Counted from the stretch's first letter, positions 1,467 through 18,956 are shown. The stretch is DNA of 20,811 bases from Candidatus Jordarchaeia archaeon (GCA_029856435.1 JAHQXB010000020.1:1-20811), one strand, 5' to 3'. Numbers and translations are program-made. The notes: generated from the sequence alone by a model not told the origin.

Positions 1467-1509
1467 CACCCACCAAGAAAGGATAAAAATAATCCCCCCA
1501 CGCAGCCAG

Positions 1510-3197: not shown

Positions 3198-4454
3198 TCA
3201 GAACTGTGGACTTTTTGAAACTAGTTGTATACTGCTGGGGAATATTCCTGCTCTGGGAGATGTGCCATATGTTTTTTCGAGTTCTTCAAGCATTTTGTGG
3301 AAATTCTTGTGGAAAATTGTTCTTTTCGGGTAGTAGTGGAGAACATCGGCTCTACTGAGGTTCGGGGAGAAGATTCCGAATGGGTTGTTTGACAGGGCTT
3401 GGAACAATGGGTGTTCGCCCCAATTTTGGTAAAGTCGGCCCCCTGTTTCTCCAATTAAGGAGTGGTATCCACGTCCTTCTGTAGATGCAGTCATAAAAAT
3501 GATGGCTGCCTCACGCTTGAATAGTTCATAGGCGCTGAAAAATATTGGGAACCCCTTTACTGTTTGCGATAGCTCAGTATCCTCGGGGTAGAGGTTGAAA
3601 AATCCAATGTCTAGCCGTTCCTCAGGAGACAATTTCGGTACCTCCGTGTAATAGACTTTATTTGCTAGCTCAACAGCTTTCCTGTGTGCTTCAATGTAGT
3701 GACCTGCAAAAATCCCAGCGATTCCCCGCTTCATGGTAGAAACTAGATTTATACTGAAATCGAGTCCCACCCTGCTGCAAACATCTTCAATGTCTTTCCT
3801 CAGCTCCGTGATAAATCCCAAGCCCACACCAATTCCTTTCAATGCAGCTTGATGATTTGCCTCAAGTGTCTCAATGCCGCAAATTCCAGGCAGTATTATT
3901 TTTGCTCCGCCACCAAAACCCGCTAGCGCATGGGGAATAACCGTCCCCACCGCAATCTTCACGTCTGCCTCATAATAGGTTTTATTTATGTAAATGGGTG
4001 TTCCCCTGTTCGAATATCCCAGAAAGACTAAGTTCTCGTATGGATGATGGTTTTCAACGTTAACGCTTTCCACCACCTTTTCACCCACCTTTTTTATGAA
4101 ATCCTGCCGGGTCATAGGCCTATGTGCCCCAAGAGCTGCTATTAATGTGATATTTTCATTAGACACCCCTGCCTCATTTAACTCCTTTAAAACAATTTCG
4201 CAAACTGGTCCCGCCCTTGTGGGTCGGGAGATGTCCTCCACAACTATCACAGCACTTTTCTTCCCTCGTGCAATCTCTTGAATAGAGGGTGTACCAATCG
4301 GATTTTTTATCGCATTTTCCAATTCTTCCAGACTAGTAATATCCTCCGCGTCGCGCATACAAAATAATTGAATACTCCAAGTGTCAGGAAATTTAAGAAC
4401 ATACTCCTCTTTCCCATACCATGCACTCCAAGGAATTATGACGGACTGCACCAA
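3198..4454 (-). CDS. larA: LarA-family nickel-pincer-nucleotide-dependent alpha-hydroxyacid racemase/epimerase
   Basis: Motifs VEDISRPT (Asp/Arg), ALGAHRP (His), IPHALAGFGGGAK (His, cofactor-binding Lys) and EANH (Ni-ligand His) match the LarA catalytic set. The substrate may not be lactate. TTG/GTG start. Confidence 0.85.
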   Translation of the reverse strand: MVQSVIIPWSAWYGKEEYVLKFPDTWSIQLFCMRDAEDITSLEELENAIKNPIGTPSIQEIARGKKSAVIVVEDISRPTRAGPVCEIVLKELNEAGVSNENITLIAALGAHRPMTRQDFIKKVGEKVVESVNVENHHPYENLVFLGYSNRGTPIYINKTYYEADVKIAVGTVIPHALAGFGGGAKIILPGICGIETLEANHQAALKGIGVGLGFITELRKDIEDVCSRVGLDFSINLVSTMKRGIAGIFAGHYIEAHRKAVELANKVYYTEVPKLSPEERLDIGFFNLYPEDTELSQTVKGFPIFFSAYELFKREAAIIFMTASTEGRGYHSLIGETGGRLYQNWGEHPLFQALSNNPFGIFSPNLSRADVLHYYPKRTIFHKNFHKMLEELEKTYGTSPRAGIFPSSIQLVSKSPQF

Positions 4455-4683
4455 CTCTTCTCACACCCCTTACCACAATTAACAAAATTTTCTCACAGAT
4501 TTTTAACTATAACCCTTTTAAATCATTGATGGTTTAAGCACCAGCACAGTTAACTGGGTGTCACCTTTTCTGTGTAAATTTGGGTTGCATCCTGTCCCGG
4601 GGACCGAAGACCATTCTGAGTTATTCTGCAGGGCAAAAAAGCCGAAAAACAAACAACATGCAGCAGGCGACACCAAATCAATT

Positions 4684-4822
4684 GTGACTAAGCACCAATC
4701 AAATTCGAAACAGTGCTTAAGCCACGAGAACTCTAAAAGGCGTTCTGCGTAGTGCTACCAGCTATCTCACTGGAATTTTGGAAAACAATGTTCTCCACAC
4801 TACGTGACTTGTTTCCAGTGAG
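4684..4822 (-). other. Cluster of stem-loops (possible structured RNA) in a long non-coding region
   Basis: Stem 4684-4695/4713-4725 (12 bp, one bulge) and a perfect 10-bp inverted repeat CTCACTGGAA (4766-4775)/TTCCAGTGAG (4813-4822) enclosing an 8-bp hairpin. A-C mismatches on + become G-U pairs on -. Confidence 0.35.
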
Positions 4823-4907
4823 TATAAGTAACTGAAAATTTTTAGCCTAAATAAAGATCCATGTTTCTAAAATAAAAAGGAGAGGATTAGAGCGTTTGAC
4901 ACCCCCT

Positions 4908-5168
4908 TTAGAAGTTCACTCCTAACAGATTCCACCGTACTTTTAACGAGACCCTTTTTTCTCCAGTCGTTTTAAAACGTAGTAGATTGAGGAGGCTTTG
5001 GGACAAAATTGGTTTTGGCTTTTTCTTCTCAGCTTTTTTGTCATTAGGGGGTGTTATAAGCGGCGAAAAACAATACTCTTTCACTTCGTCAGTGGGATTA
5101 CGCGTCGGAAACACAAACTTTGCCCCAAAGCCGATTGAAGAAAAGCCTATTTCTGTGCAGATGCGCAT
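4908..5168 (-). CDS. Small hypothetical protein (86 aa) or gene remnant
   Basis: ATG preceded by purine-rich GAGGGGAGGGAA, with a Lys-rich central segment. No recognisable domain; may be spurious. Confidence 0.25.
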   Translation of the reverse strand: MRICTEIGFSSIGFGAKFVFPTRNPTDEVKEYCFSPLITPPNDKKAEKKKPKPILSQSLLNLLRFKTTGEKRVSLKVRWNLLGVNF

Positions 5169-5311
5169 TTCCCTCCCCTCAACTATTTTTTCAATCTCCT
5201 AGCCATAAAAACTACTTGCAATAGTAGACTCGAGGATCACAGCCTTTATACCCAATATTAAGTTTTCCGAATTCAATATACGCATGGTTCCATTTTGATC
5301 CCAAGAAAATG

Positions 5312-5335
5312 CGAAATTCAGAAAACAGAATTTCG
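5312..5335. repeat. 8-bp perfect inverted repeat CGAAATTC-N8-GAATTTCG
   Basis: Read directly. It lies about 150 nt downstream of uspA; could be a terminator hairpin or a protein-binding site. Confidence 0.4.
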
Positions 5336-5481
5336 AAAAATAAGATTGATGCACCCGCCGAATCAACTAGGACTTCCATATTTCATAAACAGAAATGCTC
5401 CCAAAATAGTGAATAGATTGAATTTATAGTAAAAAATATTTTTTGCAAAAAGAAATTTTTGGGAGCGATGAAAAAGGTGTT

Positions 5482-5913
5482 TCAGCGTACCACGAGAACA
5501 GGTACACTTGACCATCTTACAATTTTTTCCGCATGGCTTCCCAACACTACTCTCTTAACACCGAGAAGCCCTCTGGTCCCTATCACGATTAGGTCCACAG
5601 CTTCCCTTTTCGCCAGCTCCACTACAACCTCTGCAGGGTCTCCTACCTGTATTATCCTCTTAACTAACACATTTTCCTTATTCGCCTTTTTTTCAACACC
5701 ATTAAGAATATCGTTAGCCCTCTTTTCGAGCGCGTCTTGAACTTTGCAGTAAACATCCCTGTCATTTTCCTCCACACATGATAAGGCGTCCATGTTAACC
5801 ACGGTGACCGCCAAGAGTTCCGCCCCGGTACTCTTACAAAGTTCAATTGCATGATCCACAGCCTTCGCAGAATGTTCAGATCCATCCGTAGCCACCATTA
5901 TTTTACGATACAT
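5482..5913 (-). CDS. uspA: Universal stress protein (UspA family, ATP-binding type)
   Basis: YRKIMVATDGSEHS, GDPAE and DLIVIGTRG..G.....LGS.A..IVR....PVLVVR, including the G-x2-G-x9-GS ATP-binding motif. GGGTGA RBS. Confidence 0.93.
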   Translation of the reverse strand: MYRKIMVATDGSEHSAKAVDHAIELCKSTGAELLAVTVVNMDALSCVEENDRDVYCKVQDALEKRANDILNGVEKKANKENVLVKRIIQVGDPAEVVVELAKREAVDLIVIGTRGLLGVKRVVLGSHAEKIVRWSSVPVLVVR

Positions 5914-6092
5914 ATCATCACCCTACTTTTTAATAAGCAGCGGAGGAACGTTCTACGAACCCCCTATTAAATTTTAGCATAAAAACAATCATAAAAACAT
6001 AACCAAGAATGCGGAAAAACTTTTCAAAAAATGGTTTCGCAAGAAAAAACGTTCAACAGTCTATGAGAAGATTATTTTCTTTGGCGTAGAGG

Positions 6093-6429
6093 TTATTTTG
6101 TGGTGAATAGCTTTGGTGCGAAAAGCTTTCTGATTTCTTCTACTACCAAAACGCTACTGCTGACCAGAAACACTAGGATCCAGTCATTGAGGGGTAAGGG
6201 CATAATTTGGAATAACTCTTGGAAAAACGGAACGCCCGCAATAGAGATGTTCAAGACAATTGAAATAATGAATCTTGCAACAAGGTACTTGTTTGAGAAA
6301 AATCCAATTTTAAAAAAGGGAATATTCTTGAGATCTCATGTTTAAAGCATTGTAGAGCTGGAAGAAAACCAGAGTATAGAAGACCATGGTTCGGGGCTCC
6401 TTATAACCATAGATAAAAAAATCAAGCAT
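6093..6429 (-). pseudogene. 3' remnant of a cation-transporting P-type ATPase (Cation_ATPase_C region), frameshifted
   Basis: Manual translation gives MLDFFIYGYKEPRTMVFYTLVFFQLYNALNMRSQEYSLF* (6429-6310). After a +1 shift in a T6 run it continues KIGFFSNKYLVARFIISIVLNISIAGVPFFQELFQIMPLPLNDWILVFLVSSSVLVVEEIRKLFAPKLFTTK* (6311-6093). This matches the family pattern RTM.F..LVF.QL.N.LN.RS...S.F..G.FSN..L...VP..Q..F...PL....W......EIRK. Confidence 0.8.
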
Positions 6430-6639
6430 TCCCCTCTGTGAAGACCGGCTAAAATTTCTTTTAGGAGCCCGAATTTTTTAATCAAACTTACAAAGATACC
6501 TTTTCCACAACTACGATTTACCGAAGAGGAGCTCCCCCTTACAATTATAGCTGGAGAGAATTCAGAAACTCCAGAGAACGCTGGGGGGAAGGCATAATTT
6601 TTTAATTTTTTTTACTATTTATCTTGATAGGTGTTTGTT

Positions 6640-8142
6640 ATGAGGACTACACCCATTGGTATTGTGATGTTTAACGATGAGAGAGAACATGTGTACACTA
6701 AAAATAATAGGGAATGCATGGAAGTCGTGCAAAAGTGGGCGGAAATCATTCGAAAGGGCATAAAAAATTTGGATGGCACAGCACCCGAAGTAGTTACTGG
6801 TTCAGAAATAATTACCTCGGTTAGAGTGGCTCAAGAAGTCGGTGAGGAGCTTTCCCGAGCCAATTGTAAACAGTTAATACTGTGTTTCTATGTTTGGAAC
6901 TTTCCCTTCTTTGTGTGGCCCTTCATAAACAGTGTGGGCCGGGAAAAACCCATTCTCTGCCTCTCAAATAACAGCGGCAAATTTCCGGGAAACGTGGGAC
7001 TGCTCGCTACCGATGGAGCTCTGCGCCAGGCGGGCATAAGAACTCATCGCATTGTGGGCGACATGGACGATCCAGAAGTGAGAGCCAAGGTGTTTGATTG
7101 GATTCGGGCAGCCCAAGCATGTACTGTTATCCAAAATGAGGTTTATGGGATGTATGGTGGCCACAGTATGGGAATGGAGACCGGTTACCACCACCTTGTT
7201 CCCATCCTGAAGACCTTTGGTACTACCGTCCGCCAGATTGACCAGTTGTGGCTTGTAGAAAAGATGAAGGAAATAGACGAAGGAGAAGTGGAAAAGGGAT
7301 TAAAATGGTTCGAAGAGCTCATGGGTGAAAGAATAAAGTATGATGGGAAAATGTTGACCCGTGAATCACTAAAAAAGCAGATCCGCCTCTACCTTGCCAT
7401 GAAGAAGGTGAACGAAGAAAAAGGTTTCGATTTCTGTGGATTGAAGGGACAACGTGAATTAACCGAGTATGTTTGCCTAGGCGACGTAGCAGAAATGCTT
7501 ATGAATGACCCCTACGATTGGAATGGGCCAAAAGAAACCACGGTGTGCGCCACCGAAGCAGACTCCTTGGCAGCAATGACCATGCAGCTTCTGAAATACA
7601 TTAGTGGCGGACTTCCAGTGCTATTTATGGATGTGAGACTTTATCACCCTGATAGAGACCTGTGGGACTTTTGCAATTCTGGTAACCACGCCAGCTGGTA
7701 CGCTTCAAGAAGCATGGATCCCAAAGAGAACTTCAAGAAGGTGACCTTCCACCCCGCCCTAGAGTTCTATTTCAAGGCTGGGGGAGCCTCAGTAGAGTTT
7801 GACGCTGCTCCGGGTGAAATAACATTCGCCCGCCTAGGCCTATGGGACGACAGGCTCTACATGGTCATCGTGCCTGGCGAAGCAGTGGAACTCCCCCCAG
7901 AGGAGAGAAAGGCGCTAAACGCCCAAACCGACCCCACCTGGCCACATGTCCATGCCAAACTGCACTGCAGTTTCGATGAGTTCCTAAGTGTTTTTCCAAG
8001 CAACCACATATTAGGCGTCGCTGGGAACCACGTTCGACCACTAATTTATCTCTGCGAAATGGTGGGAATAGAACCAATAGTTCTAGGATCCCAAGCGCAA
8101 AAAGTGATTACACCCATCTGGGAGCGTGTCCCAAAAACCTGA
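6640..8142 (+). CDS. fucI: L-fucose (D-arabinose) isomerase family protein
   Basis: GLKGQRELTE..CLGDVAEMLMNDPYDWNG, CATEAD (catalytic Glu), FMDVR (catalytic Asp) and SNH (metal His) parallel E. coli FucI (GFQGQRHWTD, FDWNG, ATEND, FADVR, ANH). The ORF track start is GTG 6631; ATG 6640 follows an AGGTG RBS. Confidence 0.82.
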   Translation: MRTTPIGIVMFNDEREHVYTKNNRECMEVVQKWAEIIRKGIKNLDGTAPEVVTGSEIITSVRVAQEVGEELSRANCKQLILCFYVWNFPFFVWPFINSVGREKPILCLSNNSGKFPGNVGLLATDGALRQAGIRTHRIVGDMDDPEVRAKVFDWIRAAQACTVIQNEVYGMYGGHSMGMETGYHHLVPILKTFGTTVRQIDQLWLVEKMKEIDEGEVEKGLKWFEELMGERIKYDGKMLTRESLKKQIRLYLAMKKVNEEKGFDFCGLKGQRELTEYVCLGDVAEMLMNDPYDWNGPKETTVCATEADSLAAMTMQLLKYISGGLPVLFMDVRLYHPDRDLWDFCNSGNHASWYASRSMDPKENFKKVTFHPALEFYFKAGGASVEFDAAPGEITFARLGLWDDRLYMVIVPGEAVELPPEERKALNAQTDPTWPHVHAKLHCSFDEFLSVFPSNHILGVAGNHVRPLIYLCEMVGIEPIVLGSQAQKVITPIWERVPKT

Positions 8143-8181
8143 AAATCCAAAGAAGGCCAAACACTAACTGAATGTACCGTT

Positions 8182-9552
8182 TTATGAGACCTTATTGGGT
8201 TTCGGCGAAATCTTAAAAGCGTAAGCGGGAGATTCTGTAAGATCCCTTGGTAGGGTAATCCTCAAATGGTTACCCTCCTGCTTCCAGTCTAGGAACTCAT
8301 TATATCCTAGTAATTGCACAGTAGAACCACCTACTGCCTGGAGCGAGTTTATGGTTATCCAGTCTTGCTTTGGACGTCCCAGAAGTATGGCGTACAATTC
8401 TTTTTCTTTCTGTGTGAATCTTACTGAGACACCTTCTTTAGTAGTTCCCTCGGCTGTGTGCCAGGGTCGCGTTTTGAATATGGCTTCACCGTTGGTTTGT
8501 AGCCACTGCCCCAACTCCAGTAAGCGTTTCCGCTGCAGGTTGGGGATGATCCCCTCCGCTGTGGGTCCAACGCCCAAAAGCAGGTTTCCATTCTTGCTGA
8601 CAATGTCCACCAGTGAGTGGACTAGTTCCCTGAGGGGAATTATGTGCTCTGATCCCTCGTTGCGGTTGTAGCCGAATGAGTACCCCAGTCCTCGTGTGCA
8701 CTCCCATTTCTGGGACCAAATTTGGTTGAAGAAGGCGTATTCTGGGGTTCTAAAGTCAAAGTGTACAGTGTCTGGGGGACTGAGAAGTGCAAAGCGGTCG
8801 TTTACAACGCCGTCTGGAATTTTGTTGTAGTAGTAGGCGAATATTTCGTTGGGATTGGCTGCGGCTGGGTACCCTATGTCGTTCCAGAGTATTGAGGGCT
8901 GGTAGCGGTCTATTAGTTCCTGCCAGTGTTTGTTGGCGTATGCAGCGTATTCTGGACTCTGGGGTACAGCAGCTAAAAGGTCGTTGAAGTTTCTTATTAC
9001 TGTGTCGTTGAATGTGAAGTCTAGTCCTCCTGAATAGTATAGTCCCATTCTCATTCCCCTTGAGAGTACGGATTTGGTTAATTCTCCTACTATGTCTCTT
9101 TGGCTGAAATAGTTTTGTTTTTTGGGATTAGGTGTTTCACTGGGCCAAAGTAGGAAGCCGTCGTGGTGTTTGGTTGTGAGAACCACGTAGCGTGCCCCAA
9201 TTTTTTTGAATAAGTTAGCCCATTCGTTGGGATTCCAGTTTTGGATGGCTTCGTTAAACATGGGAATAAAATTGTCGTAGGAGAAGTCTTCTCCATAGGT
9301 TTTTATGTGGTAGTGGTAGGATGGGCTGCCCTTTATTCTGACGGAGTTTACATACCACTCCGCATAGGGGTTTTTGGAAAACCAGCCTTCCCATCCCTCC
9401 TTGGCAACCACCTCATGAAATTTGCCTGTGGTGGGTGCCCATCCCGGCACCGAGTACAGGCCCCAGTGGATAAATATCCCCAGCTTAGCGTCATGAAACC
9501 AGTCGGGAACAGTGTGTTTCTTTAGAGATTGGGAACTAGGCTCATACACCAT
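8182..9552 (-). CDS. Alpha-L-fucosidase, glycoside hydrolase family 29 (no signal peptide)
   Basis: PDWFHDAKLGIFIHWGLYSVPG, LTTKHHDGFLLW, LWNDIG (nucleophile Asp), WECTRGLGYSFGYN and IVSKNGNLLLGVGP. ATG 9552 follows GGGTGA; the ORF track starts at 9594. Confidence 0.93.
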   Translation of the reverse strand: MVYEPSSQSLKKHTVPDWFHDAKLGIFIHWGLYSVPGWAPTTGKFHEVVAKEGWEGWFSKNPYAEWYVNSVRIKGSPSYHYHIKTYGEDFSYDNFIPMFNEAIQNWNPNEWANLFKKIGARYVVLTTKHHDGFLLWPSETPNPKKQNYFSQRDIVGELTKSVLSRGMRMGLYYSGGLDFTFNDTVIRNFNDLLAAVPQSPEYAAYANKHWQELIDRYQPSILWNDIGYPAAANPNEIFAYYYNKIPDGVVNDRFALLSPPDTVHFDFRTPEYAFFNQIWSQKWECTRGLGYSFGYNRNEGSEHIIPLRELVHSLVDIVSKNGNLLLGVGPTAEGIIPNLQRKRLLELGQWLQTNGEAIFKTRPWHTAEGTTKEGVSVRFTQKEKELYAILLGRPKQDWITINSLQAVGGSTVQLLGYNEFLDWKQEGNHLRITLPRDLTESPAYAFKISPKPNKVS

Positions 9553-9712
9553 AACTTCTTCACCCTTTGAGATACAATTTTTATGGTGGTTCACACTAAT
9601 AATTTTTTTTAAGCTAAACCATTTTGTTCTTGTTGTTGTACGGAAAATTTAACTATGTGTTGATTTGTCGTTAGTGGAGAAAATTTTGTAATGTGATTGG
9701 AGGTTGGTTGAA

Positions 9713-10828
9713 ATGTTGAAATTTGGAACTGTTGGGCCTACTTTTCCTCCCATAGAGCGTATTCCGGAGCAGGCTAAGAGGTTGGAAGAGAGAGGATATG
9801 ACTCCATATGGTTTCCGGATCATCTTATGGGGTGGTATCCTCAGAGTATTTGGACTTCAGATATAGTTGGTGCCTTTGCACAGTTCAGCCCTCACGTGTT
9901 TTTTGAGACCACTCTTTCAATTGCGCTGGCCGCTTCTACTACAACAAGGCTCCTGATAGGTTCAAGTGTAACTGAACCTATAAGGCACCATCCGGTAATG
10001 CTTGCTCAGAGCTACGCAACCCTAGAACACATTACCAGAGGTAGAGTTATTCTGGGAATCGGGGCGGGAGAAAAAGAAAATTGTGAGCCCTACGGCCTGA
10101 AGTATGAAAACATAGTTAGTAGGCTTGAGGAAGCCCTGCAAATTATTCGCCTCTGCTGGAATGCGAAAAGAGATGAGCTTCTAAACTTTGAGGGAAAATT
10201 CTGGACCTTAAAGGATGCTGTGTTTGAACTGCCTCCGCTGAAGGGTAGACCGCCCATATGGATTGGTGGTGCGGGTCCTAGGATGGCTAAGCTTGTTGGA
10301 ACATACGCCGACGGTTGGCTTCCCTTCACACTTGACGTTGAAACTTACAAAAACCGCCTACAAATCATAAAAGAAGCCGCCCGGAAAGCCAGAAGAAACT
10401 ATGGCGCGATTGCGAAGGCTCTTTACACCAGTTTAATTATCGATGAGAGTCACGATGAGTGCATACGCATAATGCAGTCACCCATACTAAAAGCCCATGC
10501 TCTAGCTACTCCTTCAGAAATATTCGAAAAACATGGCTACGAACACCCCCTGGGCAAAAAGTTCTACGGATTAACAGATTTTGTCCCCTCAAGACTATCA
10601 AAAGAGCAGGCTATGAAGGCAATTGAAAAAGTTCCCCTAGAAGTTGTACAGGACAGCTACCTTTGGGGTACCCCCGAAGAAATCATAGAAAAAATAGACA
10701 AGTTCGTCAAAGTGGGAATGGAACACTTCATAGTGTGGAATGAAACCTATTTTGGAGACCCCACCAAGGTAAGCAGCTCCTACCGCTGCATAGCAGAAGT
10801 AATGAAATATTTCAAAGAATCCAAATGA
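9713..10828 (+). CDS. LLM-family (luciferase-like) oxidoreductase, probably F420-dependent, Rv2951c/phthiodiolone ketoreductase-like
   Basis: DSIWFPDHL, GRVILGIGAGEKENCEPYG, SRLEEAL and IWIGGAGPRM...ADGW resemble the mycobacterial Rv2951c subfamily as I recall it. GGAGGT RBS 8 nt before ATG 9713. Confidence 0.85.
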   Translation: MLKFGTVGPTFPPIERIPEQAKRLEERGYDSIWFPDHLMGWYPQSIWTSDIVGAFAQFSPHVFFETTLSIALAASTTTRLLIGSSVTEPIRHHPVMLAQSYATLEHITRGRVILGIGAGEKENCEPYGLKYENIVSRLEEALQIIRLCWNAKRDELLNFEGKFWTLKDAVFELPPLKGRPPIWIGGAGPRMAKLVGTYADGWLPFTLDVETYKNRLQIIKEAARKARRNYGAIAKALYTSLIIDESHDECIRIMQSPILKAHALATPSEIFEKHGYEHPLGKKFYGLTDFVPSRLSKEQAMKAIEKVPLEVVQDSYLWGTPEEIIEKIDKFVKVGMEHFIVWNETYFGDPTKVSSSYRCIAEVMKYFKESK

Positions 10829-10836
10829 ACCACCAA

Positions 10837-10910
10837 TTTTTTCCTTTTTAAAAAGCTTAATCCACTCGTCCATTCCAAATAAAGGGAGAGGGAGATTAAA
10901 AAATAAGAAA
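10837..10910. terminator. Bidirectional oligo-T terminator region between convergent genes
   Basis: A T-rich run on + (10837-10849) follows the LLM stop. An A-rich run (10898-10910), which is T-rich on -, follows the aminotransferase stop. Confidence 0.45.
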
Positions 10911-10931
10911 TAATGGTTGGTTTCTCAAACA

Positions 10932-12317
10932 TTACTGGAATAGTTGGGGTGAAATTTCTTTTATTACTGGTTTTAAAGTTTCTATGCTCTGCTGTGCGGC
11001 TTCTAGGGCTTTTTTCACGTCGTCTCTGGTGGTGACAGCTGACACGTTGGGGTGGTCTCGATAGTATATTCCTCGGTTAAGTGAGTCCAAGTCGAAGTAG
11101 TTTTGGCATCGGGTGTCAGCAGTTTTTAGTGTTCGATAGTCCACCACCTTCTCTTTTGTCCAGAAAATGTGGAAGAATGAGCCTACGCCACCCACCTGGG
11201 CATTAATGTTTTGGTCGCTCAGGATTTCAGCCAAGCCTTCCCTCATTTCTTCTCCAAGCTTGTTCATTTTCTCATAAACATCCTTTGTTAAGACATCCAG
11301 TGTAGCGGCTCCCGCAACCATTGCCAAGGGAAAAGCGTTAAAGGTTCCAGAGAAGAACAACTGCGGTCCCTCGGGCAACTCGAATGAAAATTGTTTCATA
11401 ATTTCATGGCTGGAAACATAGGCTCCCACCGGAAAACCGCCACCAATAAGTTTACCCAGAGTGGTGATATCTGGCGTTACCCCATAGAGTTCCTGGGCCC
11501 CTCCCCTGCTTACCCGGTAGCACACAACTTCATCGAATATGAGGAGGATTCCATACATCTCGGTTAGTTCTCGCACCCTCTCAAGGTACCCCTCCTTGGG
11601 TTCGTAGCCTCTCTGTATGGGCTCTAAGATAACTGCGGCCAACTCGTCCTTGTGCTTTTTGATGGTTTTTTCCATAATCTCAATATTGTTGAAGGGCACA
11701 ACCAGTGTGTTTTCAATTACTCCTCGGGGAATTCCTTTGCTGAAGGGGACCCTATTGGGGTTAAGCGGTGGGCCTTGCTCTTCGGGGGTGGGAAAGACGC
11801 TAATGTCTACTGCGTCCCAGGTTCCATGATAGGCCCCCTCACACTTTACTATTTTTTCCTTCTTGGTGTAGCATCTAGCCAGTCTTATTGCTTGGTGTAC
11901 AGCTTCGGTGCCCGAGGGAGTAAACCTCACCTGTTCTGCGCTGGGAATTCTTTCAACCAGCCTCTTTGCCAGTTCAACCTCATGTTCCGTGGGGCCACCA
12001 AAGGAGGTGCCACACTCTATCTGTTGATTAATAGCCTCCATAACCTTAGGGTGTTTATGGCCCAGAACCAGACAAGTCATATTAAAGTTGAAGTCTATAT
12101 ACTCGTTGTCATCTATATCCCAGAGACGTGCACCCTCACCTTTCCGTATATAGGCAGGGTAGGGCATCATAAAAACTGCAATCCGGGTGTTCGCACCGGG
12201 CATCACCTTCAAAGCCTCGTCAAACCTTTGCTTGGAACGCTTTGTCCTATTCATATATTCCTGAACTATGGAGCTAACAATTTTTGCTTCCGCACTCATC
12301 CAAACATCTCCATTCAA
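10932..12317 (-). CDS. Class III PLP aminotransferase, glutamate-1-semialdehyde aminomutase-like / beta-amino acid transaminase-like
   Basis: MPGANTR, FTPSGTEA, LIFDEV, DITTLGKLIGGGFPVGA (PLP Lys) and SGTFNA. It lacks the canonical HemL YVxSWGPxILGH and QAGTLSGNP. Start is 12317 or 12299. Confidence 0.85.
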   Translation of the reverse strand: MNGDVWMSAEAKIVSSIVQEYMNRTKRSKQRFDEALKVMPGANTRIAVFMMPYPAYIRKGEGARLWDIDDNEYIDFNFNMTCLVLGHKHPKVMEAINQQIECGTSFGGPTEHEVELAKRLVERIPSAEQVRFTPSGTEAVHQAIRLARCYTKKEKIVKCEGAYHGTWDAVDISVFPTPEEQGPPLNPNRVPFSKGIPRGVIENTLVVPFNNIEIMEKTIKKHKDELAAVILEPIQRGYEPKEGYLERVRELTEMYGILLIFDEVVCYRVSRGGAQELYGVTPDITTLGKLIGGGFPVGAYVSSHEIMKQFSFELPEGPQLFFSGTFNAFPLAMVAGAATLDVLTKDVYEKMNKLGEEMREGLAEILSDQNINAQVGGVGSFFHIFWTKEKVVDYRTLKTADTRCQNYFDLDSLNRGIYYRDHPNVSAVTTRDDVKKALEAAQQSIETLKPVIKEISPQLFQ

Positions 12318-12339
12318 AATGTTTCTTACAAAGACTCAA

Positions 12340-12395
12340 TACGCATAAATAAAAAGTTTATCCCCAAGCTTAGGCAAAAGCATAATTTAAAATAG
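12340..12395. promoter_or_regulatory. Back-to-back TATA elements for the divergent aminotransferase and hydrolase genes
   Basis: TTTTTATTTATG on - (about 12345-12356) and AAAAG...TTTAAAAT on + (about 12376-12393), within an intergenic gap of about 120 nt. Confidence 0.4.
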
Positions 12396-12440
12396 GCCCC
12401 TTCACAGAATAATAAAAAACAATTGGGAGGCGCGAATGGT

Positions 12441-13238
12441 TTGCCCAAAATAAAAGTTCGTGACATAAACATTTACTACGAAATCCATGGAGAAGGACAT
12501 CCTCTAGTGATGATAATGGGACTAAGCGCAAACAAGGACTGGTGGCATCCATATCTCATTGAGCAATTTTCCAAAAGTTTCAAAACCGTAATATTTGACA
12601 ACAGGGGGGCCGGAAGAACAGACAAGCCGAAAATAGAGTATTCCATTAAAATGTTTGCGGACGACACTGTAGGGCTAATGGATGCCCTAGGCATAAAAAA
12701 GGCCCACATACTGGGCGTATCCATGGGTGGAATGATTGGCCAAGAGATAGCCTTAAGCTACCCGGATAGGGTCAACAAGCTGGTTCTCGTCTCTACAACG
12801 TGTGGTGGACCAAAATCTGTGCCAGTTCCTCCAGAAACTCTCAAGATGATGCTGAACAGGGGAGAAATGACTGAGGAGGAGCGCATGAGGATAACTGTGG
12901 AGCTACTCTACCCTGAGGAGTATAGAAAAAATAATCCAGGAATAATTGAGGAAACCTTCCAGCGTCTAATGATAGCCCCCATACCCATAGACGCCTACAT
13001 GAGACAATTGACGGCCGCCTCAAAGTTTGATTCTTATGAAAGTCTCCCCAAAATTAAAGCGCCTACAATAGTTCTTACGGGAAAAAAGGATGTTCTTCTA
13101 CCCTGGGAGAACTCAAAAATACTGGCGGAAAGAATTCCAGGCGCAAAACTGGTAACCTTCGAGGAATCAGGACATGGCATGGTTTCCCAGAACGCTAAGG
13201 AATTCGCCCAAGCGGTAATAGAATTTTTAAAGGACTAA
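12441..13238 (+). CDS. Alpha/beta-fold hydrolase (3-oxoadipate enol-lactonase/MhpC-like), paralog A
   Basis: FDNRGAGRT, GVSMGG (nucleophile elbow), GKKD (acid) and SGHG (His). TTG 12441 follows GGAGG and aligns with the start of paralog B. Confidence 0.9.
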   Translation: MPKIKVRDINIYYEIHGEGHPLVMIMGLSANKDWWHPYLIEQFSKSFKTVIFDNRGAGRTDKPKIEYSIKMFADDTVGLMDALGIKKAHILGVSMGGMIGQEIALSYPDRVNKLVLVSTTCGGPKSVPVPPETLKMMLNRGEMTEEERMRITVELLYPEEYRKNNPGIIEETFQRLMIAPIPIDAYMRQLTAASKFDSYESLPKIKAPTIVLTGKKDVLLPWENSKILAERIPGAKLVTFEESGHGMVSQNAKEFAQAVIEFLKD

Positions 13239-13295
13239 AAGTACCAGCATCGTCTTTCTCCTTTAATGAATCAGAGCTTGGATTGGAAGGTGGAT

Positions 13296-13326
13296 TGGAG
13301 CTTATTGCTCCACCATTTTTATTTTT
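13296..13326 (+). terminator. Hairpin TGGAGC-TTATT-GCTCCA followed by T tracts
   Basis: 6-bp stem at 13296-13312, then TTTTTATTTTT, about 60 nt after the stop of hydrolase A. Confidence 0.35.
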
Positions 13327-13520
13327 AATGAGTTAAACTAGTCGAATTGAAACGAGAAACTGGAAAAACTGAGGTAGTTTTATCCCCCAAAATTTCGCTG
13401 CAAGAAATAACTTAGCATAAATACGCGGAGTAACTGGGGCTAGGCAAAATTGGAAAGATGATGGTTTGGGTAGAAGAAAATCGTTATAAGAATAAAATAG
13501 GAGATAATAGGTAATAGGAA

Positions 13521-13547
13521 GACAATTACAAATAATTTTAAATTGTC
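13521..13547. promoter_or_regulatory. Inverted repeat GACAATT-N13-AATTGTC bracketing a TATA-like box; candidate operator
   Basis: Perfect 7-bp arms; the spacer contains AATAATTTTA; about 45 nt upstream of hydrolase B. Confidence 0.35.
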
Positions 13548-13590
13548 ACCAAAGGGATATTAATGATTAGAGCTGAGGAGGTGTTCCCAG

Positions 13591-14388
13591 TTGCCAAGGA
13601 TTAGAATAGGCGACATAAAGATGTATTATGAGATCCACGGCAAAGGATTCCCTCTAGTGATGATAATGGGTTTGTCAGCCAATAAGGATTGGTGGCCTGA
13701 CTACTTTATTCAGCAGTTCTCCAAGCGTTTCAAATTGCTCATATTTGACAATAGGGGCGCTGGAAGAACAGACGCACCAAAAATAGATTATACTATAAGA
13801 ATGTTTGCAGATGACACCATAGGCCTCATGGACGCCCTCGAAATAGAGGAGGCGCACATGATTGGCGTGTCTATGGGCGGAATGATTGCCCAAGAGCTGG
13901 TCATAAATTATCCAGATAGAGTGAAGAAACTGGTGCTCTGCTCCACAACCCCGGGTGGACCAAACTCTATACCCACACCGCCAGAAACTGTTCAAAAAAT
14001 AATGCAGAGTGAAGGACTAACAGATGAGCAGATAGCCAGAAGAACCATACCACTACTTTTCACCGAAGAATTCATCAAAAACAATCCAGATGTAGTTGAG
14101 AGGACAGTAAACCGCATACTCATAGCGCCCATATCCAGAGACGCCTTCATGAGGCAGATAAAAGCAATAATGCAGTTTGACGCCTACGACAGGCTGCCAA
14201 AAATCAATAAACCCACCCTAGTAATGGCGGGCAAAGAGGACGTGCTTATACCCTACCGGAACTCAGAAATACTAGCCCAACGCATCCCCAGAGCAAAAAT
14301 AGTCCTCTACGACAAAGTGGGACACGGAATGATCACCCAAGTAGCAGAAGACTGCGCCAAGAAAATATTAGAGTTTCTCGAAAAGTAA
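13591..14388 (+). CDS. Alpha/beta-fold hydrolase, paralog B (tandem duplicate)
   Basis: GVSMGG, GKED and VGHG. Colinear with paralog A at about 60% identity by hand count (159/265). GAGGAGGTG RBS before TTG. Confidence 0.9.
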   Translation: MPRIRIGDIKMYYEIHGKGFPLVMIMGLSANKDWWPDYFIQQFSKRFKLLIFDNRGAGRTDAPKIDYTIRMFADDTIGLMDALEIEEAHMIGVSMGGMIAQELVINYPDRVKKLVLCSTTPGGPNSIPTPPETVQKIMQSEGLTDEQIARRTIPLLFTEEFIKNNPDVVERTVNRILIAPISRDAFMRQIKAIMQFDAYDRLPKINKPTLVMAGKEDVLIPYRNSEILAQRIPRAKIVLYDKVGHGMITQVAEDCAKKILEFLEK

Positions 14389-14470
14389 GCCGACCAAAAA
14401 AGAAGGAGGCTGAAAAAGCACAATTTGAATGCAAAACGGCTTTTTGGAGAATTATGAGTGGTGATTTCTT

Positions 14471-14953
14471 ATGGAGGTTCTATTGGCATACTATTCTAAA
14501 ACGGGCAACACAGAGAAAATAGCCAAGAAAATACAAAAAGTCCTAGAACCAATAGGAAAAGTGGAACTGTTCAAAATTGAGATGGCAAATGAGTACAGCA
14601 GCAGGCTTTTGCACCTTAATCCCCGAATCACCTTCGACTGCCTTTTTAGGAGAAAACCAGAAATTAAAGCCACCAAAAATTTGGAAAAGTACGACGCACT
14701 AATTATTGGCTCCCCAATCTGGTACTTCACAATCGCACCCCCAGTAAATACCTTTATTGATAAACTAGAGAAAGCTAAGGGTAAAAAAGCTGTAATCTTT
14801 GTCTCTTCAGGTATGGGTAGAGAGAAATTCACCAAGAGTCTACAAGAGAAACTGCTGAGTAAAGGTGCGAAAATTGTGAAATCCATTAGCATCAAGCTGG
14901 ACCGAATTGACCAAGGAACACTTCAGGAAATATGCGATGCGCTAAAGTCCTAA
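14471..14953 (+). CDS. Flavodoxin-family protein
   Basis: FMN phosphate loop YYSKTGNTEKIA, IIGSPIWY and FVSSG. GGTGA RBS. Confidence 0.85.
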   Translation: MEVLLAYYSKTGNTEKIAKKIQKVLEPIGKVELFKIEMANEYSSRLLHLNPRITFDCLFRRKPEIKATKNLEKYDALIIGSPIWYFTIAPPVNTFIDKLEKAKGKKAVIFVSSGMGREKFTKSLQEKLLSKGAKIVKSISIKLDRIDQGTLQEICDALKS

Positions 14954-15155
14954 ACCATATTCTTTTTAAATGGGATTATTTTTCAAAAGAAGATTTTTTA
15001 GAAATTTTTAAACAGTTATAAACCATAAAAACTCCTCTTTACGCATTTTAAAGTTTAATATAATCTCTTTTCACACCAGAATAAACTGTTCACTAAAAAT
15101 TTTTAATAACACCCACCAAAACAAGGTTTACCCAAAAAAAACGGGTGAAGGAAGA

Positions 15156-16301
15156 ATGAAAAGGAAGATAATAGTGGCAGCAGCCATAACAACACTTGCA
15201 CTATTTGTCCTAGCCATGTCTCTACCCGCACTCACAACACCAGCCACAGCAGCAGCAAGCCTTCCAACAGCGGAATATAACACACAAGAAAAATCGGTAG
15301 AATCACTCGACTGGGGGAATTCCTGGTTTGACAACAACACCAAAGCCTTCTTCACAAACATGTTTATGTTCAACTTATCTCAAAATTTCGTTTCTGGTAA
15401 TTTCACCCACAGAGCCCTAGCAAACAGTAGATTCGGCTTAAACTTTGCAAAACTAGTAGAATTCAACGACACCAACAATAACCAACGCTACGACAATGGA
15501 ACAGACAACATTCTAAAAGAATACAGCTTGGTCACCGATGTTAGTTGGAATAAATTAACAATAGAGACGGGTCCGCTGATACAGCAAATACCTCCACTTT
15601 TTGAATACATCAAAGTTTCCATAGAGGGAACAGAAAAGACAGGAGCCTTTAACATTGCTTTTGGAATTCTATTGTACTTTGAATCACAAAACGTTTCTTT
15701 TGGCAACTCCAGTGTCACAGTTCCAAAGCTTTCATCCCTAAAATTCGAATTAAACATCACAAACTATAATTGGCAAGTAGAAAACCCGGAGAATCCTTAC
15801 AACTTTAGATTTCTAGCCTTGGTGATAACCCTGCACTCCTGTCTAGGTGACTCTCTTCAGTACCGTTACCGGTGGGCTGAGGGAGCAGTTGTAGCAAATG
15901 GTGAAAGCGGACTTGTACCCACACTGAAAAACGACGAAGGTGTCTCCGAAGTTGAATTCATAGACTCTTGGGGAATTCCAGTTGCTGAGTTCAACTGGTT
16001 CAACGGTGCCTATAACAGCACCCAAAACCCACGCCCGGCCTGTTCAACATTCTGCCTAAATAATGAAACACTAACCATCAATATTGCCTTCTCCCACGAA
16101 GACTTTAGCGACGGTAATATATACATTGATCCCTACTTCGCTCTACTTGAGCCAAACTATTTACCCCTAATACTCACATTTGCTGCCATATACCTAGCCT
16201 TCGCGAATCAAGCATTTTCAACACTAATTATTTACAGTGGAGCAGCTGTCGCGACACTAGTACTGTTAGGCGTCGCAGTGGTTTTAGCTAGGAGAAGGTA
16301 A
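15156..16301 (+). CDS. Secreted, C-terminally membrane-anchored hypothetical (glyco)protein
   Basis: Basic-plus-hydrophobic signal peptide, beta-rich body, 10 N-x-S/T sequons, Ca-binding-like DTNNNQRYD, a long hydrophobic C-terminus (about aa 336-378) and an RRR tail. Confidence 0.8.
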   Translation: MKRKIIVAAAITTLALFVLAMSLPALTTPATAAASLPTAEYNTQEKSVESLDWGNSWFDNNTKAFFTNMFMFNLSQNFVSGNFTHRALANSRFGLNFAKLVEFNDTNNNQRYDNGTDNILKEYSLVTDVSWNKLTIETGPLIQQIPPLFEYIKVSIEGTEKTGAFNIAFGILLYFESQNVSFGNSSVTVPKLSSLKFELNITNYNWQVENPENPYNFRFLALVITLHSCLGDSLQYRYRWAEGAVVANGESGLVPTLKNDEGVSEVEFIDSWGIPVAEFNWFNGAYNSTQNPRPACSTFCLNNETLTINIAFSHEDFSDGNIYIDPYFALLEPNYLPLILTFAAIYLAFANQAFSTLIIYSGAAVATLVLLGVAVVLARRR

Positions 16302-16336
16302 CAGCCAAACTTAAAGAGCAAAAATCTCTAACCCCC

Positions 16337-16362
16337 TTTTTCTTTTTTGTTTTATTTCTTTT
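16337..16362 (+). terminator. Oligo-T terminator
   Basis: TTTTTCTTTTTTGTTTATTTCTTTTT starting 36 nt after the stop at 16301. Confidence 0.5.
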
Positions 16363-16428
16363 TCTAGGTTTGGGGGTGGAATTTATTAAAGGGAGTTTCT
16401 TCAATTTTTATGTTAGGGTGGTGTTTTA

Positions 16429-17895
16429 TTGGAGAATTTTGTTGCGGTTGATATGGGTGCTAGTTCTGGGAGGCTGGTTTTGGGCAAGTTAGATTGGTCG
16501 GATAATCGGCTGGATTTGGAGGAGGTTTACAGGTTTAAAACGGAGGGAAACTGTTTGCTTGGAGGTCTTTATTGGGATGTTTTAAGGTTCTACGATGAGG
16601 TTAGGGAAGGTTTATGCCGCTGTGCTCAACGTTGTGGGGGAGAAACAGTTAGTGTGGGTGTTGACAGCTGGGGTGTTGACTATGCTCCCCTAGATGCGAG
16701 GGGTGAACTTGTGAGTAACCCGAGACACTATAGGGACCCCAGAACAGAGGGAATTATGGATGAAGTTTTCAAGTTGGTTTCAAGAGAGGAGATTTTCTCT
16801 TATACGGGGACTCAGTTTATGCGTATAAACACTATTTTCCAACTCTACGCAATGAGTAAAACTCCTATGGCATACATCACTGATAAAATTCTCATGATGG
16901 CAGACTTCTTCAACTACCTACTTTCCGGAAGGGCGGTTTCAGAGATGACTTTGGCGAGCACCACTCAGATTTACGATGTTTTTAAACACGATTGGTGTTG
17001 GCCCCTTATAGAGAAACTGGGATTCAACCCGCGCTGGTTCCAAAAGATAGTTCCACCAGGAACGATTCTCGGGGAATTAGATGACCGGCTGAAAAGTGAG
17101 TTAGGACTGAGGGAAACACTTGTTACTGCGCCTCCTTGCCATGACACAGCCGCTGCTGTGGCAGCCGCACCCGCAGGGGATAAAAAGTTTCTCTTCATAA
17201 GTTCGGGCACTTGGTGCCTTATGGGAACTGAGCTGCCTAGGCCCCTTGTTAACGAGAATGTTTTAAGGGTAGGATTTGCCAACGAGGTGGGTGTGGAAAA
17301 AACTATTAGGTTTTTGAAAAACATTACCGGATTCTGGCTTCTTCAAGAATGTGTAAGACAATGGAAACTGGGGGGAATTGAATTACAATATGGAGAGCTG
17401 ATTCGGGAGTCGCAGGATTGCCCAGAATTTAGATATTTTGTTAATCCTGATGATCCCATTTTCCTTAATCCTCAGAATATGCCTGAAGCCATACAAAACT
17501 TTTGTAGGCGAACGGGGCAGGAGCCTCCTAGGAAACGTGGGGAAGTGGTGCGTTGCATTCTTGAAAGCTTAGCTTTGAGGCACAGAGAGGTCTATGAGGC
17601 ACTAAAAAGTCTTCTGGGGCATTCCTTAGAGGAAGTTTATATTGTTGGAGGCGGCTCTCAGAACGAGTTGTTCTGCCAATTTATTGCTGATGCCTTGAAT
17701 CTCCCAGTTTACGCTGGTCCAACTGAAGCCACGGCGATTGGAAACATTCTAACCCAAGCCTGCGCTTTGCACGGTAGGATTTCCCTATCTGCTATTAGAA
17801 AAATTGTGCGAAACTCGTTTAAACCAAGATTGTATAGGCCTGAGGATGTGTCACAATGGGACGAAGCCTTCAAGAGGTACAGGGAAGTAATTTAA
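16429..17895 (+). CDS. rhaB: Rhamnulokinase / L-fuculokinase (FGGY family)
   Basis: AVDMGASSGR, SVGVDSWGVDY, YRDPRT, HDTAAAV, ISSGTWCLMG, FANEVG, FLKNITGFWLLQE and VGGGSQN, which is the RhaB signature set. Confidence 0.88.
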   Translation: MENFVAVDMGASSGRLVLGKLDWSDNRLDLEEVYRFKTEGNCLLGGLYWDVLRFYDEVREGLCRCAQRCGGETVSVGVDSWGVDYAPLDARGELVSNPRHYRDPRTEGIMDEVFKLVSREEIFSYTGTQFMRINTIFQLYAMSKTPMAYITDKILMMADFFNYLLSGRAVSEMTLASTTQIYDVFKHDWCWPLIEKLGFNPRWFQKIVPPGTILGELDDRLKSELGLRETLVTAPPCHDTAAAVAAAPAGDKKFLFISSGTWCLMGTELPRPLVNENVLRVGFANEVGVEKTIRFLKNITGFWLLQECVRQWKLGGIELQYGELIRESQDCPEFRYFVNPDDPIFLNPQNMPEAIQNFCRRTGQEPPRKRGEVVRCILESLALRHREVYEALKSLLGHSLEEVYIVGGGSQNELFCQFIADALNLPVYAGPTEATAIGNILTQACALHGRISLSAIRKIVRNSFKPRLYRPEDVSQWDEAFKRYREVI

Positions 17896-17928
17896 ATCTT
17901 TAAATACCCTTTTTTACGTTTTTAAATA

Positions 17929-17942
17929 GTAATACGTATTAC
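17929..17942. promoter_or_regulatory. Perfect 14-bp palindrome GTAATACGTATTAC directly downstream of a TATA-like box; candidate operator
   Basis: Self-complementary over all 14 nt. TTTTAAAT lies immediately upstream (about 17920-17927) and the isomerase start is about 50 nt downstream. Confidence 0.5.
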
Positions 17943-17990
17943 CCAGCTATGCGAATTAACAATAAAAATTTAGTTTTGGATGGTGGTTTC

Positions 17991-18956
17991 GTGAAAAAGT
18001 TTTCGCTTGGTGTCTGGGCCTTTAGCCCATGTGGAGACCGGTTTCTCATAGAAGGTTACAGGCCCAGTATGCCCCTTGAGGAAATAATTAGAAAAGTTGC
18101 CACAATAAAGGACCTGAGCGGAGTTGAGTTAGGGTATCCGGGCAACGTGAATGAAAAAAATCTCGAAGAGTTAAAGTCGATACTCAAAGAGACTGGTCTA
18201 AAGGTGTCAATGGTGGGCGTTGACCTAACCGGGGATAGGAAGTGGCAGAAAGGCAGCCTCTCCTCCACCAATCCAGAAATCCGCAGAGAAGCAATACAAC
18301 TATGCAAAAGTGGAATCGCCCTCGCAAAAAAATTGGGGTGCAACTCCTTCAATATCTGGCTGGGACAGGACGGCTACGATTACCCCTTCCAGTCCAATTA
18401 TCCAAAGGCCTGGGACCTGCTGGTTGACTCCATCACAGAAATTGCAAAGACAGGGGTTAAGGTATGCTTGGAGTATAAGCCAAAGGAGCCCCGAACACAC
18501 TCCTACATAGCAACAGTTGACAAAGCCCTGCTCATCGCACATGAAACGGGAATGAAGAATGTGGGCGTCACCATAGATGTGGGACATGCACTCGCAGCCT
18601 ATGAAAGTATGGCTGAATCCGCGGTTCTCTGCATGAAGGCCGGAAGACTATTCCACCTCCACTTAAACGATAACTACCGACTTTGGGACGACGATATGAT
18701 TGTGGGCTCGGTGCACACAATAGAATACCTGGAACTAATTTATTGGCTGGATAAGATGGGCTATGACGACTGGTACTCACTCGACATCTACCCCTACAGG
18801 GAAGACCCGCTGGAAGCCTCAAGGGAGAGTATAGAAATGCTTAAAGCCCTATCCAACCTTCTGAACAAAATTGGCAGAGAAGAGTTGGAAAAAGCCATAG
18901 AGGAAGGAGACCCCGTAAAAACACAGAAACTAATCCGAGAAAAAATATTCAAGTAG
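17991..18956 (+). CDS. Xylose-isomerase-like TIM-barrel sugar isomerase (candidate L-rhamnose isomerase)
   Basis: KFSLGVWAF, W.GQDG, EYKPKEPR, DVGH and HLNDN...DDD metal ligands, intermediate between class I XylA and RhaI-type isomerases. GTG 17991 follows GGTGG; the ORF track starts at 17949. Confidence 0.8.
   Translation: MKKFSLGVWAFSPCGDRFLIEGYRPSMPLEEIIRKVATIKDLSGVELGYPGNVNEKNLEELKSILKETGLKVSMVGVDLTGDRKWQKGSLSSTNPEIRREAIQLCKSGIALAKKLGCNSFNIWLGQDGYDYPFQSNYPKAWDLLVDSITEIAKTGVKVCLEYKPKEPRTHSYIATVDKALLIAHETGMKNVGVTIDVGHALAAYESMAESAVLCMKAGRLFHLHLNDNYRLWDDDMIVGSVHTIEYLELIYWLDKMGYDDWYSLDIYPYREDPLEASRESIEMLKALSNLLNKIGREELEKAIEEGDPVKTQKLIREKIFK

Follow-up and report, generated by a model that had tools for sequence, protein, structure and literature searches.

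We analysed a stretch of 20,811 nucleotides from Candidatus Jordarchaeia archaeon (GCA_029856435.1 JAHQXB010000020.1:1-20811, hereafter the window), which is the entire contig C11 of a metagenome-assembled genome (MAG; G000) of 3.54 Mb that is 97.8% complete, with 5.7% contamination and no 16S assembled, and whose taxonomic placement is based on relatives and synteny. The window carries 15 sizeable open reading frames (ORFs), including four intact genes for sugar enzymes that form two pairs: a FucI-like isomerase with a GH29 alpha-L-fucosidase (module A), and a RhaB-type FGGY ketose 1-kinase with a two-metal TIM-barrel isomerase of 335 amino acids (module B, the isomerase being called TIM335 below). 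An earlier interpretation made from the DNA alone (the sequence-only reading) had located the same four ORFs and joined them into one phosphorylative L-fucose/L-rhamnose pathway of bacterial type, split across two loci of an archaeon. Coordinates of these and further features are collected in Table 1.

Table 1. Features of the window (contig C11) and of the two other contigs discussed, with the gene pairs first
Feature	Position	Strand	Remarks
FucI-like isomerase, 503 aa	6631-8142	+	Module A; alternative ATG at 6640, the start taken in the sequence-only reading
GH29 alpha-L-fucosidase	8182-9594	-	Module A; convergent with the FucI-like gene, 39-bp gap
RhaB-type FGGY ketose 1-kinase (rhamnulokinase/fuculokinase type)	16429-17895	+	Module B
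Two-metal TIM-barrel aldose-ketose isomerase, 335 aa (TIM335, 3ktc-like)	17949-18956	+	Module B; 53 bp downstream of the kinase, same strand
FucA-like class II aldolase	C180:12007-12672		Preceded by a 2-hydroxyacid dehydrogenase and a 514-aa LsrK/XylB-like FGGY kinase
Core genus operon ending in this aldolase	C180:9440-12672 (L088:7441-10673)		2-hydroxyacid dehydrogenase, 514-aa LsrK/XylB-like kinase, FucA-like aldolase
Orphan RuBisCO-like protein	C67:37192-41584 (L170:7193-11585)		At contig end, convergent with an XylB-like FGGY kinase; 2-hydroxyacyl-CoA dehydratase-like genes upstream
LarA-like gene	3198-4454	-	Best as malate racemase LarAH6, 247 bits against a cut-off of 500; LarA (NF033504) 198 against 460
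Backbone between the modules	9704-14953		F420-dependent LLM oxidoreductase, HemL-like class III aminotransferase (variable slot), two paralogous alpha/beta hydrolases, flavodoxin
Surface-type protein, 381 aa	15156-16301	+	Signal peptide or transmembrane segment, many N-x-S/T sequons, C-terminal transmembrane helix ending RRR
Intergenic repeats	~1510-1585, ~2921-3033, ~4544-4686, ~4993-5136, ~6093-6419

The FucI-like protein matches the Pfam domains Fucose_iso_N1, N2 and C at 135, 56 and 106 bits, all above their cut-offs, and its E309, D334 and H459 align with the catalytic and Mn residues E337, D361 and H528 of E. coli FucI, a triad kept in 13/13 members examined of a 500-aa clade. The intact catalytic residues claimed in the sequence-only reading are thus present. 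The assignment as FucI itself did not survive: at 28% identity to E. coli FucI and 503 aa against ~590 aa, the protein belongs to a distinct, uncharacterised short-form clade and is not a FucI equivalog. Copies 97% identical were found in two same-genus MAGs and copies 80-86% identical in many Bathyarchaeia, and the clade extends at 70-79% identity to Anaerolineae, Latescibacterota, Armatimonadota, Bacillota and others. Because the Jordarchaeial copies nest inside the Bathyarchaeia clade (FastTree, local supports 0.99 and 0.92) and high-identity copies are confined to this genus among 301 sampled Asgard genomes, the comparison points to a transfer of the gene from Bathyarchaeia.

The convergent neighbour is recognised as a fucosidase by Alpha_L_fucos (303 bits) and by Fucosidase_C over its C-terminal domain (47 bits), is the sole GH29 of the genome, and probably starts at an ATG 14 codons into the ORF (about 9552). 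It shows no N-terminal hydrophobic segment or signal peptide and is therefore predicted to be cytoplasmic, as the sequence-only reading had it. Adjacent GH29 and FucI-like genes also occur in a Bathyarchaeon (L005), in Desantisbacterium (L064) and in another bacterium (L076); since these GH29s are just 26-30% identical to that of the window, the association arose repeatedly. In L064, an E. coli-type FucK above its cut-off (508 bits against 471) is located between the two genes. The repeated GH29 adjacency, together with this FucK, gives good, though indirect, support to L-fucose as the predicted substrate of the FucI-like isomerase.

In module B, the kinase has both the N and C domains of the Pfam FGGY family and scores comparably against E. 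coli RhaB (2cgj, 306 bits) and S. pneumoniae FucK (4c23, 287 bits). A quick maximum-likelihood tree, with an unresolved backbone, placed it inside a RhaB-type clade with E. coli RhaB (99% support in the Shimodaira-Hasegawa approximate likelihood ratio test, SH-aLRT) and apart from E. coli FucK, in keeping with its earlier description as a RhaB/FucK-type kinase. The same clade also holds kinases encoded directly upstream of canonical 596-aa FucI (Neobacillus, Halalkalibacter), AraD-linked kinases of Bacillota, and kinases of Chloroflexota/Omnitrophota linked to a RuBisCO-like protein (RLP). Because rhamnose, fucose, AraD and RLP contexts are mixed in this way, family membership does not fix the substrate, and we discarded any substrate assignment from the kinase phylogeny on account of these contexts and of the unresolved backbone. 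Within the tree, the Jordarchaeial kinases fall into one clade (98% SH-aLRT) with those from other Asgard families, found in 25 of the 301 sampled Asgard genomes, including 18/68 of one family. Sister Asgard kinases lie divergent beside a class II aldolase, with a Zn-dependent alcohol dehydrogenase nearby. At two such loci from another Asgard family (L204 in G146:C8 and L206 in G040:C36), the kinase and a 224-aa class II aldolase are divergently oriented, a HepT/MNT toxin-antitoxin pair lies between them, and a Zn-dependent polyol-type dehydrogenase and an NAD-epimerase are encoded close by; since no isomerase was seen in these two neighbourhoods, the ketose there may derive from polyol oxidation.

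TIM335 has the AP_endonuc_2 fold (Pfam), and among structures it comes closest to the uncharacterised structural-genomics entry 3ktc (220 bits), with any XylA or L-rhamnose isomerase far behind. Residue-level alignments assign E175, K177, D210, H213, H238, D247, D249 and D279 to the site, with H238 (or H236) as the metal-ligand histidine; across 55 relatives the ligands are all but invariant, a single Glu at D210 being the exception. Asp stands at the position of XylA Glu216 and His at that of XylA Asp244, and the motif series E-x-K, D-x-G-H, H, W-D-x-D and L-D is common to TIM335 and E. coli RhaA, where it aligns to E226, D259, H262, H286, D294, D296 and D326 with an hhalign probability of 7%. 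The numbers that we take to be those of the RhaA ligands fit the right residue types in the RefSeq sequence at a constant offset of +8. Together, this is suggestive of a RhaA-type rather than a XylA-type metal site. Of the XylA/RhaI-like isomerase of the sequence-only reading, the fold is confirmed; the named families are not, as the protein scores far below every XylA and RhaI cut-off and its family forms an uncharacterised clade that is neither RhaA nor RhaI.

We examined the neighbourhoods of 70 loci of the TIM335 family. An operon from Anaerolineaceae (L099) has the order ABC sugar transporter-isomerase-RhaB-like kinase-RhaM (L-rhamnose mutarotase, 100 bits), and one from Dehalococcoidales (L157) the order MFS transporter-isomerase-RhaB-like kinase-class II aldolase. 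These two operons and the RhaA-type ligand set suggest a rhamnose-type link for module B. The commonest neighbour was an RLP, found within 4 kb in 24/70 loci and adjacent on the same strand in 17; loci of this type also have acetoin/pyruvate-dehydrogenase-type E1alpha, E1beta and E2 genes (in about 16), a RhaB-like kinase (in 11) and a regulator of the GntR or RpiR type. The conserved operon in Chloroflexota, Omnitrophota, Armatimonadota and others is [GntR or RpiR]-TIM-barrel isomerase-RLP-E1alpha-E1beta-E2-RhaB-like kinase (loci L092-L164, e.g. L097, L111, L115, L146, L152, L163), to which a URO-D/MtaA-like gene and an ABC sugar transporter are sometimes added. A literature search returned no paper on this operon, nor on an RLP with rhamnulokinase. 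The operon is a candidate for an aldolase-free deoxy-sugar route, and the tie of the isomerase family to it is a more unusual lead than the archaeal route discussed below.

To assess how the two pairs are inherited, we scored them across six genomes of the genus (G000, G028, G038, G047, G064 and G082). The FucI-like and GH29 genes are present together in three (G000, G064, G082), the kinase and the TIM-barrel isomerase together in four (the same three and G047), while G028 and G038 have neither pair. Each pair is thus co-inherited, and because the two distributions differ, the pairs are inherited independently of each other: they are separately acquired accessory modules, ~7 kb apart with unrelated backbone genes in between. 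The single pathway split across two loci of the sequence-only reading was not borne out.

The modules sit in a truly archaeal contig, a chromosomal segment of Asgard archaea (Jordarchaeia/Freyarchaeia) with a conserved backbone. Positions 69-16164 of the window are collinear with 416.8-432.7 kb of G038 (CP147778.1, Ca. Freyarchaeota SRVP19), a same-genus genome closed as a single contig. At the amino acid level, 65-77% identity is shared by eight backbone proteins: amine oxidase, M48 peptidase, Usp, F420-LLM oxidoreductase, two alpha/beta hydrolases, flavodoxin and the surface protein. The closest copies of the FucI-like protein (97%) and of the kinase (90%) are encoded on one scaffold, with identical spacing, in a MAG of Candidatus Jordarchaeia, and a Freyarchaeota MAG has them too. 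In G038 the LarA, FucI/GH29 and aminotransferase slots are filled by other genes, and the kinase and TIM-barrel isomerase of the window were not found there; the sugar genes have thus been inserted, as accessory elements, into a backbone that is Jordarchaeial. A bacterial or Bathyarchaeial fragment binned in error, as might be suspected from the contamination of the MAG and from the 86% identity of the FucI-like gene to Bathyarchaeia copies, is hardly credible given this collinearity, on which we rejected it, given the recurrence of the same arrangement in three further independently assembled MAGs of the genus, and given the genus-specific dispersed repeats in the intergenic regions. The archaeal host of the sequence-only reading is thereby upheld. 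The repeats (Table 1) occur in dozens of copies, at 65-91% identity, across contigs of G047, G064 and G028; they resemble miniature inverted-repeat transposable elements and border the variable LarA and FucI/GH29 slots.

As the sequence-only reading had noted, no aldolase, mutarotase, transporter or regulator is encoded in the window. The genome holds exactly one class II aldolase (PF00596), on contig C180, which also carries an archaeal CDC48 and a stand-alone GMP synthase subunit. This protein keeps the Zn ligands and Glu73 of FucA (E73, H92, H94 and H155), E73 being the residue typical of aldolases, which is Asp in the AraD epimerase. The protein shares 31% identity with E. coli FucA, can barely be aligned to RhaD, and is 31-34% identical to the aldolases of the Bacilli fucose operons, of the Asgard kinase loci (34% for the partner of the sister kinases) and of L157, for which it was the best match within the compared set. 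Of the two kinds of aldolase suggested by the sequence-only reading, a suitable class II enzyme thus exists as an unlinked core gene, whereas a search of the genome for RhaD or a RhaEW fusion found none. The relatives scan for the C180 kinase returned same-genus copies only. For lactaldehyde, we retained as generic candidates an iron-dependent alcohol dehydrogenase (Fe-ADH, 302 bits against 523 for the lactaldehyde reductase model) and the single aldehyde dehydrogenase (Aldedh, 275 bits against 650 for the archaeal lactaldehyde dehydrogenase model); the lactaldehyde dehydrogenase that the sequence-only reading had suggested looking for could be among them, with neither above the cut-off.

From these parts, we propose the following route. 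In module A, the cytoplasmic GH29 would free L-fucose from imported fucosides and the FucI-like enzyme would convert it to L-fuculose. In module B, TIM335 would turn an L-rhamnose-type 6-deoxy-aldose into the ketose and the RhaB-type kinase would phosphorylate C1; this kinase would probably act on L-fuculose in the same way, following the example of the RhaB-type kinases in Firmicutes fucose operons. The FucA-like aldolase, recruited from its own operon, would then cleave the ketose-1-phosphates, if its stereospecificity allows, to dihydroxyacetone phosphate and L-lactaldehyde, which may pass to the Fe-ADH or the aldehyde dehydrogenase. That two accessory modules and a recruited core aldolase make up such a bacterial-style isomerase-kinase-aldolase route for fucose- and rhamnose-type sugars is a prediction to which we give an even chance. 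The bacterial type of the enzymes in the sequence-only reading is borne out and its phosphorylative deoxyhexose route is plausible; the single split pathway and the link to LarA are unsupported, and RhaD and mutarotases were not found. One kinase serving two isomerases, also proposed there, appears reasonable, since RhaB-type kinases work next to canonical FucI in Bacilli and in S. pneumoniae.

Several results weigh against the proposed route. No enzyme in it reaches an equivalog cut-off: the FucI-like protein scores 125 and 109 bits against 775 and 850 (TIGR01089 / NF008220), the kinase 450.6 bits against 527.95 for rhamnulokinase (TIGR02627; second score 398 against 639), and TIM335 73 against 531 for RhaI (TIGR02635), 50 against 647 for L-RhI (TIGR02629) and 94 against 447 for XylA. 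G038 and G028 have the aldolase but neither module, and in G064, with both modules, it was not found; given this distribution independent of the modules, it is a core gene of the genus whose primary job is something else. FucA-type aldolases normally do not cleave L-rhamnulose-1-phosphate, and neither RhaD nor RhaEW was found in the genome. Searches of the 97.8%-complete genome also gave no match to the mutarotase families PF05336 (RhaM) and PF05025 (FucU/RbsD), no RhaA (PF06134) or GH78 rhamnosidase, and no transporter was identified; as the genome is a MAG with 5.7% contamination, these absences are provisional. In other organisms, the FucI-like gene is flanked in most Bathyarchaeia by housekeeping genes (HypA/HypE, MoaD/MoaE, ParA-like), and most bacterial isomerase-kinase pairs are joined to RLP and E1/E2 rather than to an aldolase.

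We weighed four other explanations of the gene set against the proposed route. The modules could be functionally unrelated, with the kinase serving its neighbouring isomerase alone and fuculose being phosphorylated by another FGGY kinase (e.g. the LsrK/XylB-like kinase of C180) or not catabolised further. This would fit the presence of module B without module A in G047, the unrelated genes that separate the modules, the two additional FGGY kinases in the genome, one of them in an operon with its only aldolase, and the co-occurrence of the FucI-like clade with E. coli-type FucK rather than RhaB-type kinases in L064 and in the Bathyarchaeon G304. We nevertheless regard it as unlikely, though the strongest of the four, as all genus genomes with the FucI-like and GH29 genes also have the RhaB-type kinase (3/3, close kin), as kinases of this type adjoin canonical FucI in Bacilli, and as the C180 kinase reaches just 132 bits against the FucK model. 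It is less probable again that the FucI-like protein is a conserved isomerase for another aldose and its GH29 adjacency incidental. Its low identity and score against FucI, its conservation at 70-86% identity across phyla with housekeeping neighbours in most Bathyarchaeia, and Bacillota copies near an operon of AraD, RhaB-like kinase and LarA-like genes that suggests pentulose chemistry would agree with this; its catalytic triad is however intact, it is independently tied to four unrelated GH29 genes and to a FucK equivalog, and within the genus it co-occurs perfectly with GH29.

The RLP operons raise the possibility that module B supplies the opening steps of the bacterial RLP route, with an RLP and not an aldolase acting on its ketose-1-phosphate, as the frequent linkage of the isomerase family to RLP, E1/E2 and RhaB-like kinase genes might suggest. 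This genome encodes a type III-like RuBisCO and one RLP, the orphan on C67, which stands beside an XylB-like kinase of a type also present in RLP clusters. This RLP however shares just ~37% identity with the isomerase-linked RLPs, against 47-98% among the latter, it occurs in all genus genomes irrespective of the module, no E1 or E2 genes were found in the genome, and the sister Asgard kinases pair with aldolases. We therefore rejected a tie of the module to the genome's own RLP, which is a core gene and not an orthologue of the linked ones, and consider the route improbable here; the archaeon would share just the isomerase-kinase front end, with an aldolase-type back end, as in L157 and the sister Asgard genomes, the more likely continuation because the C67 RLP is divergent and independent of the module and E1/E2 are absent. 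The corresponding specific proposal, that the C67 RLP processes the 6-deoxy-ketose-1-phosphate made by the RhaB-type kinase instead of or besides the FucA-like aldolase, is equally doubtful; if true, the bacterial RLP-dependent deoxy-sugar route would have a counterpart in archaea and the orphan RLP a function. This RLP is MtnW-like (367 bits against a cut-off of 409), and that of G038 matches in two separate frames (residues 26-373 and 376-484), indicating a frameshift or an assembly error. Finally, the deoxyhexoses might be degraded oxidatively without phosphorylation, as in Saccharolobus or Haloferax, the genes of the window doing other things. The enolase-superfamily genes of the genome comprise MenC, enolase, a cycloisomerase-like gene and two generic sugar-acid dehydratase-like genes (C145 and C172), all well under their cut-offs; the last two, which could serve such a route, score 120-195 bits against cut-offs of 311-750 (133 against 393 for L-rhamnonate dehydratase). 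We rejected these genes as an oxidative route, none being near any equivalog cut-off; no pathway context was seen around them, and the isomerase-kinase pair would be left unexplained. An oxidative pathway in place of the phosphorylative one, which the sequence-only reading had named as its refutation, thus has no positive support in the genome and is very unlikely.

Among the remaining genes of the window, the LarA-like gene had been thought able to handle the lactate product. This was unsupported and we rejected it: the best match is of malate-racemase type, every score is below its cut-off, and the distribution does not follow the modules, as the gene is present in G028, while G038 has other genes in its place. 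LarA homologues in three related Bacillota MAGs (L057, L060 and L062) share an operon with a small ORF, AraD and a RhaB-like kinase, near the FucI-like gene, which may point to this branch acting as an epimerase of sugars or sugar acids. Conserved in the genus, the backbone between the modules shows no obvious tie to sugar catabolism. The 381-aa protein encoded upstream of the kinase had no match in Pfam, NCBIfam or the PDB and is probably an archaeal surface glycoprotein; its gene is conserved at this place in the genus and partly present in G038, and we discarded it as a pathway member on its surface-protein features and its place in the backbone.

The proposed route is a genome-based prediction of ordinary biochemistry and of moderate value. 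If the assignments hold, Jordarchaeia of hot springs could use fucosylated and rhamnosylated glycans by bacterial-style chemistry; they would rely on two non-canonical clades without a characterised member, the short FucI and the TIM-barrel isomerase with a RhaA-like site, both widespread in uncultured anaerobes; and Asgard catabolism would have been assembled piecemeal, one module coming from Bathyarchaeia and another from an Asgard-wide kinase lineage, both using a core aldolase. A literature search found no paper on an isomerase-kinase-aldolase deoxyhexose route or on a fucose isomerase in Asgard archaea or Bathyarchaeia, and the Jordarchaeia and Freyarchaeia genome papers make no mention of fucose or rhamnose. 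A phosphorylative fucose gene set is nevertheless not unique to this Asgard lineage among uncultured archaea, because five Bathyarchaeia genomes with the FucI-like gene each carry 2-8 FGGY kinases and one or two FucA-like aldolases whose nearest match is the C180 aldolase. Among the kinases is an E. coli-type FucK 53% identical to that of L064.

Compared with known systems, the predicted route shares with the E. coli fuc regulon (FucI, FucK, FucA, FucO, FucU, FucP) the logic of isomerase, ketose 1-kinase and class II aldolase, the catalytic residues of FucI and a FucA-like aldolase with an intact Zn and Glu73 site. It differs in its short isomerase clade, its RhaB-type kinase and an aldolase unlinked in another operon, and in having an Asgard host without FucU, FucP or FucO equivalogs and without an operon or regulator. 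The Firmicutes fucose operons with a RhaB-type fuculokinase (FcsK of S. pneumoniae, 4c23; Neobacillus and Halalkalibacter, L085/L086) likewise employ a RhaB-type kinase alongside an isomerase of the FucI family and a small class II aldolase, and the window kinase is 37-40% identical to the Bacilli kinases; their isomerase is however the canonical 596-aa FucI and their genes are all contiguous. Bacterial L-rhamnose pathways occur in variants built from RhaA or RhaI, RhaB, RhaD or RhaEW, and RhaM (Rodionova et al., 2013, PMC3870299). With them, module B shares a RhaB-type kinase beside a non-RhaA TIM-barrel isomerase with a RhaA-type metal site, whose relatives share operons with RhaM or with a class II aldolase, whereas its own isomerase is neither RhaA nor RhaI and its genome is without RhaD, RhaEW and RhaM. 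The bacterial RLP operon has the same isomerase family (40-49% identity) and the same kinase type, of which the archaeon, without an orthologous RLP and E1/E2, would share the first two steps only. The characterised archaeal deoxyhexose routes, for L-fucose in S. solfataricus and L-rhamnose in H. volcanii, are oxidative and non-phosphorylative and run through a dehydrogenase, a lactonase and a dehydratase. The set in the window would act on the same substrates in an archaeal host, and unlike those routes consists of isomerases and a kinase.

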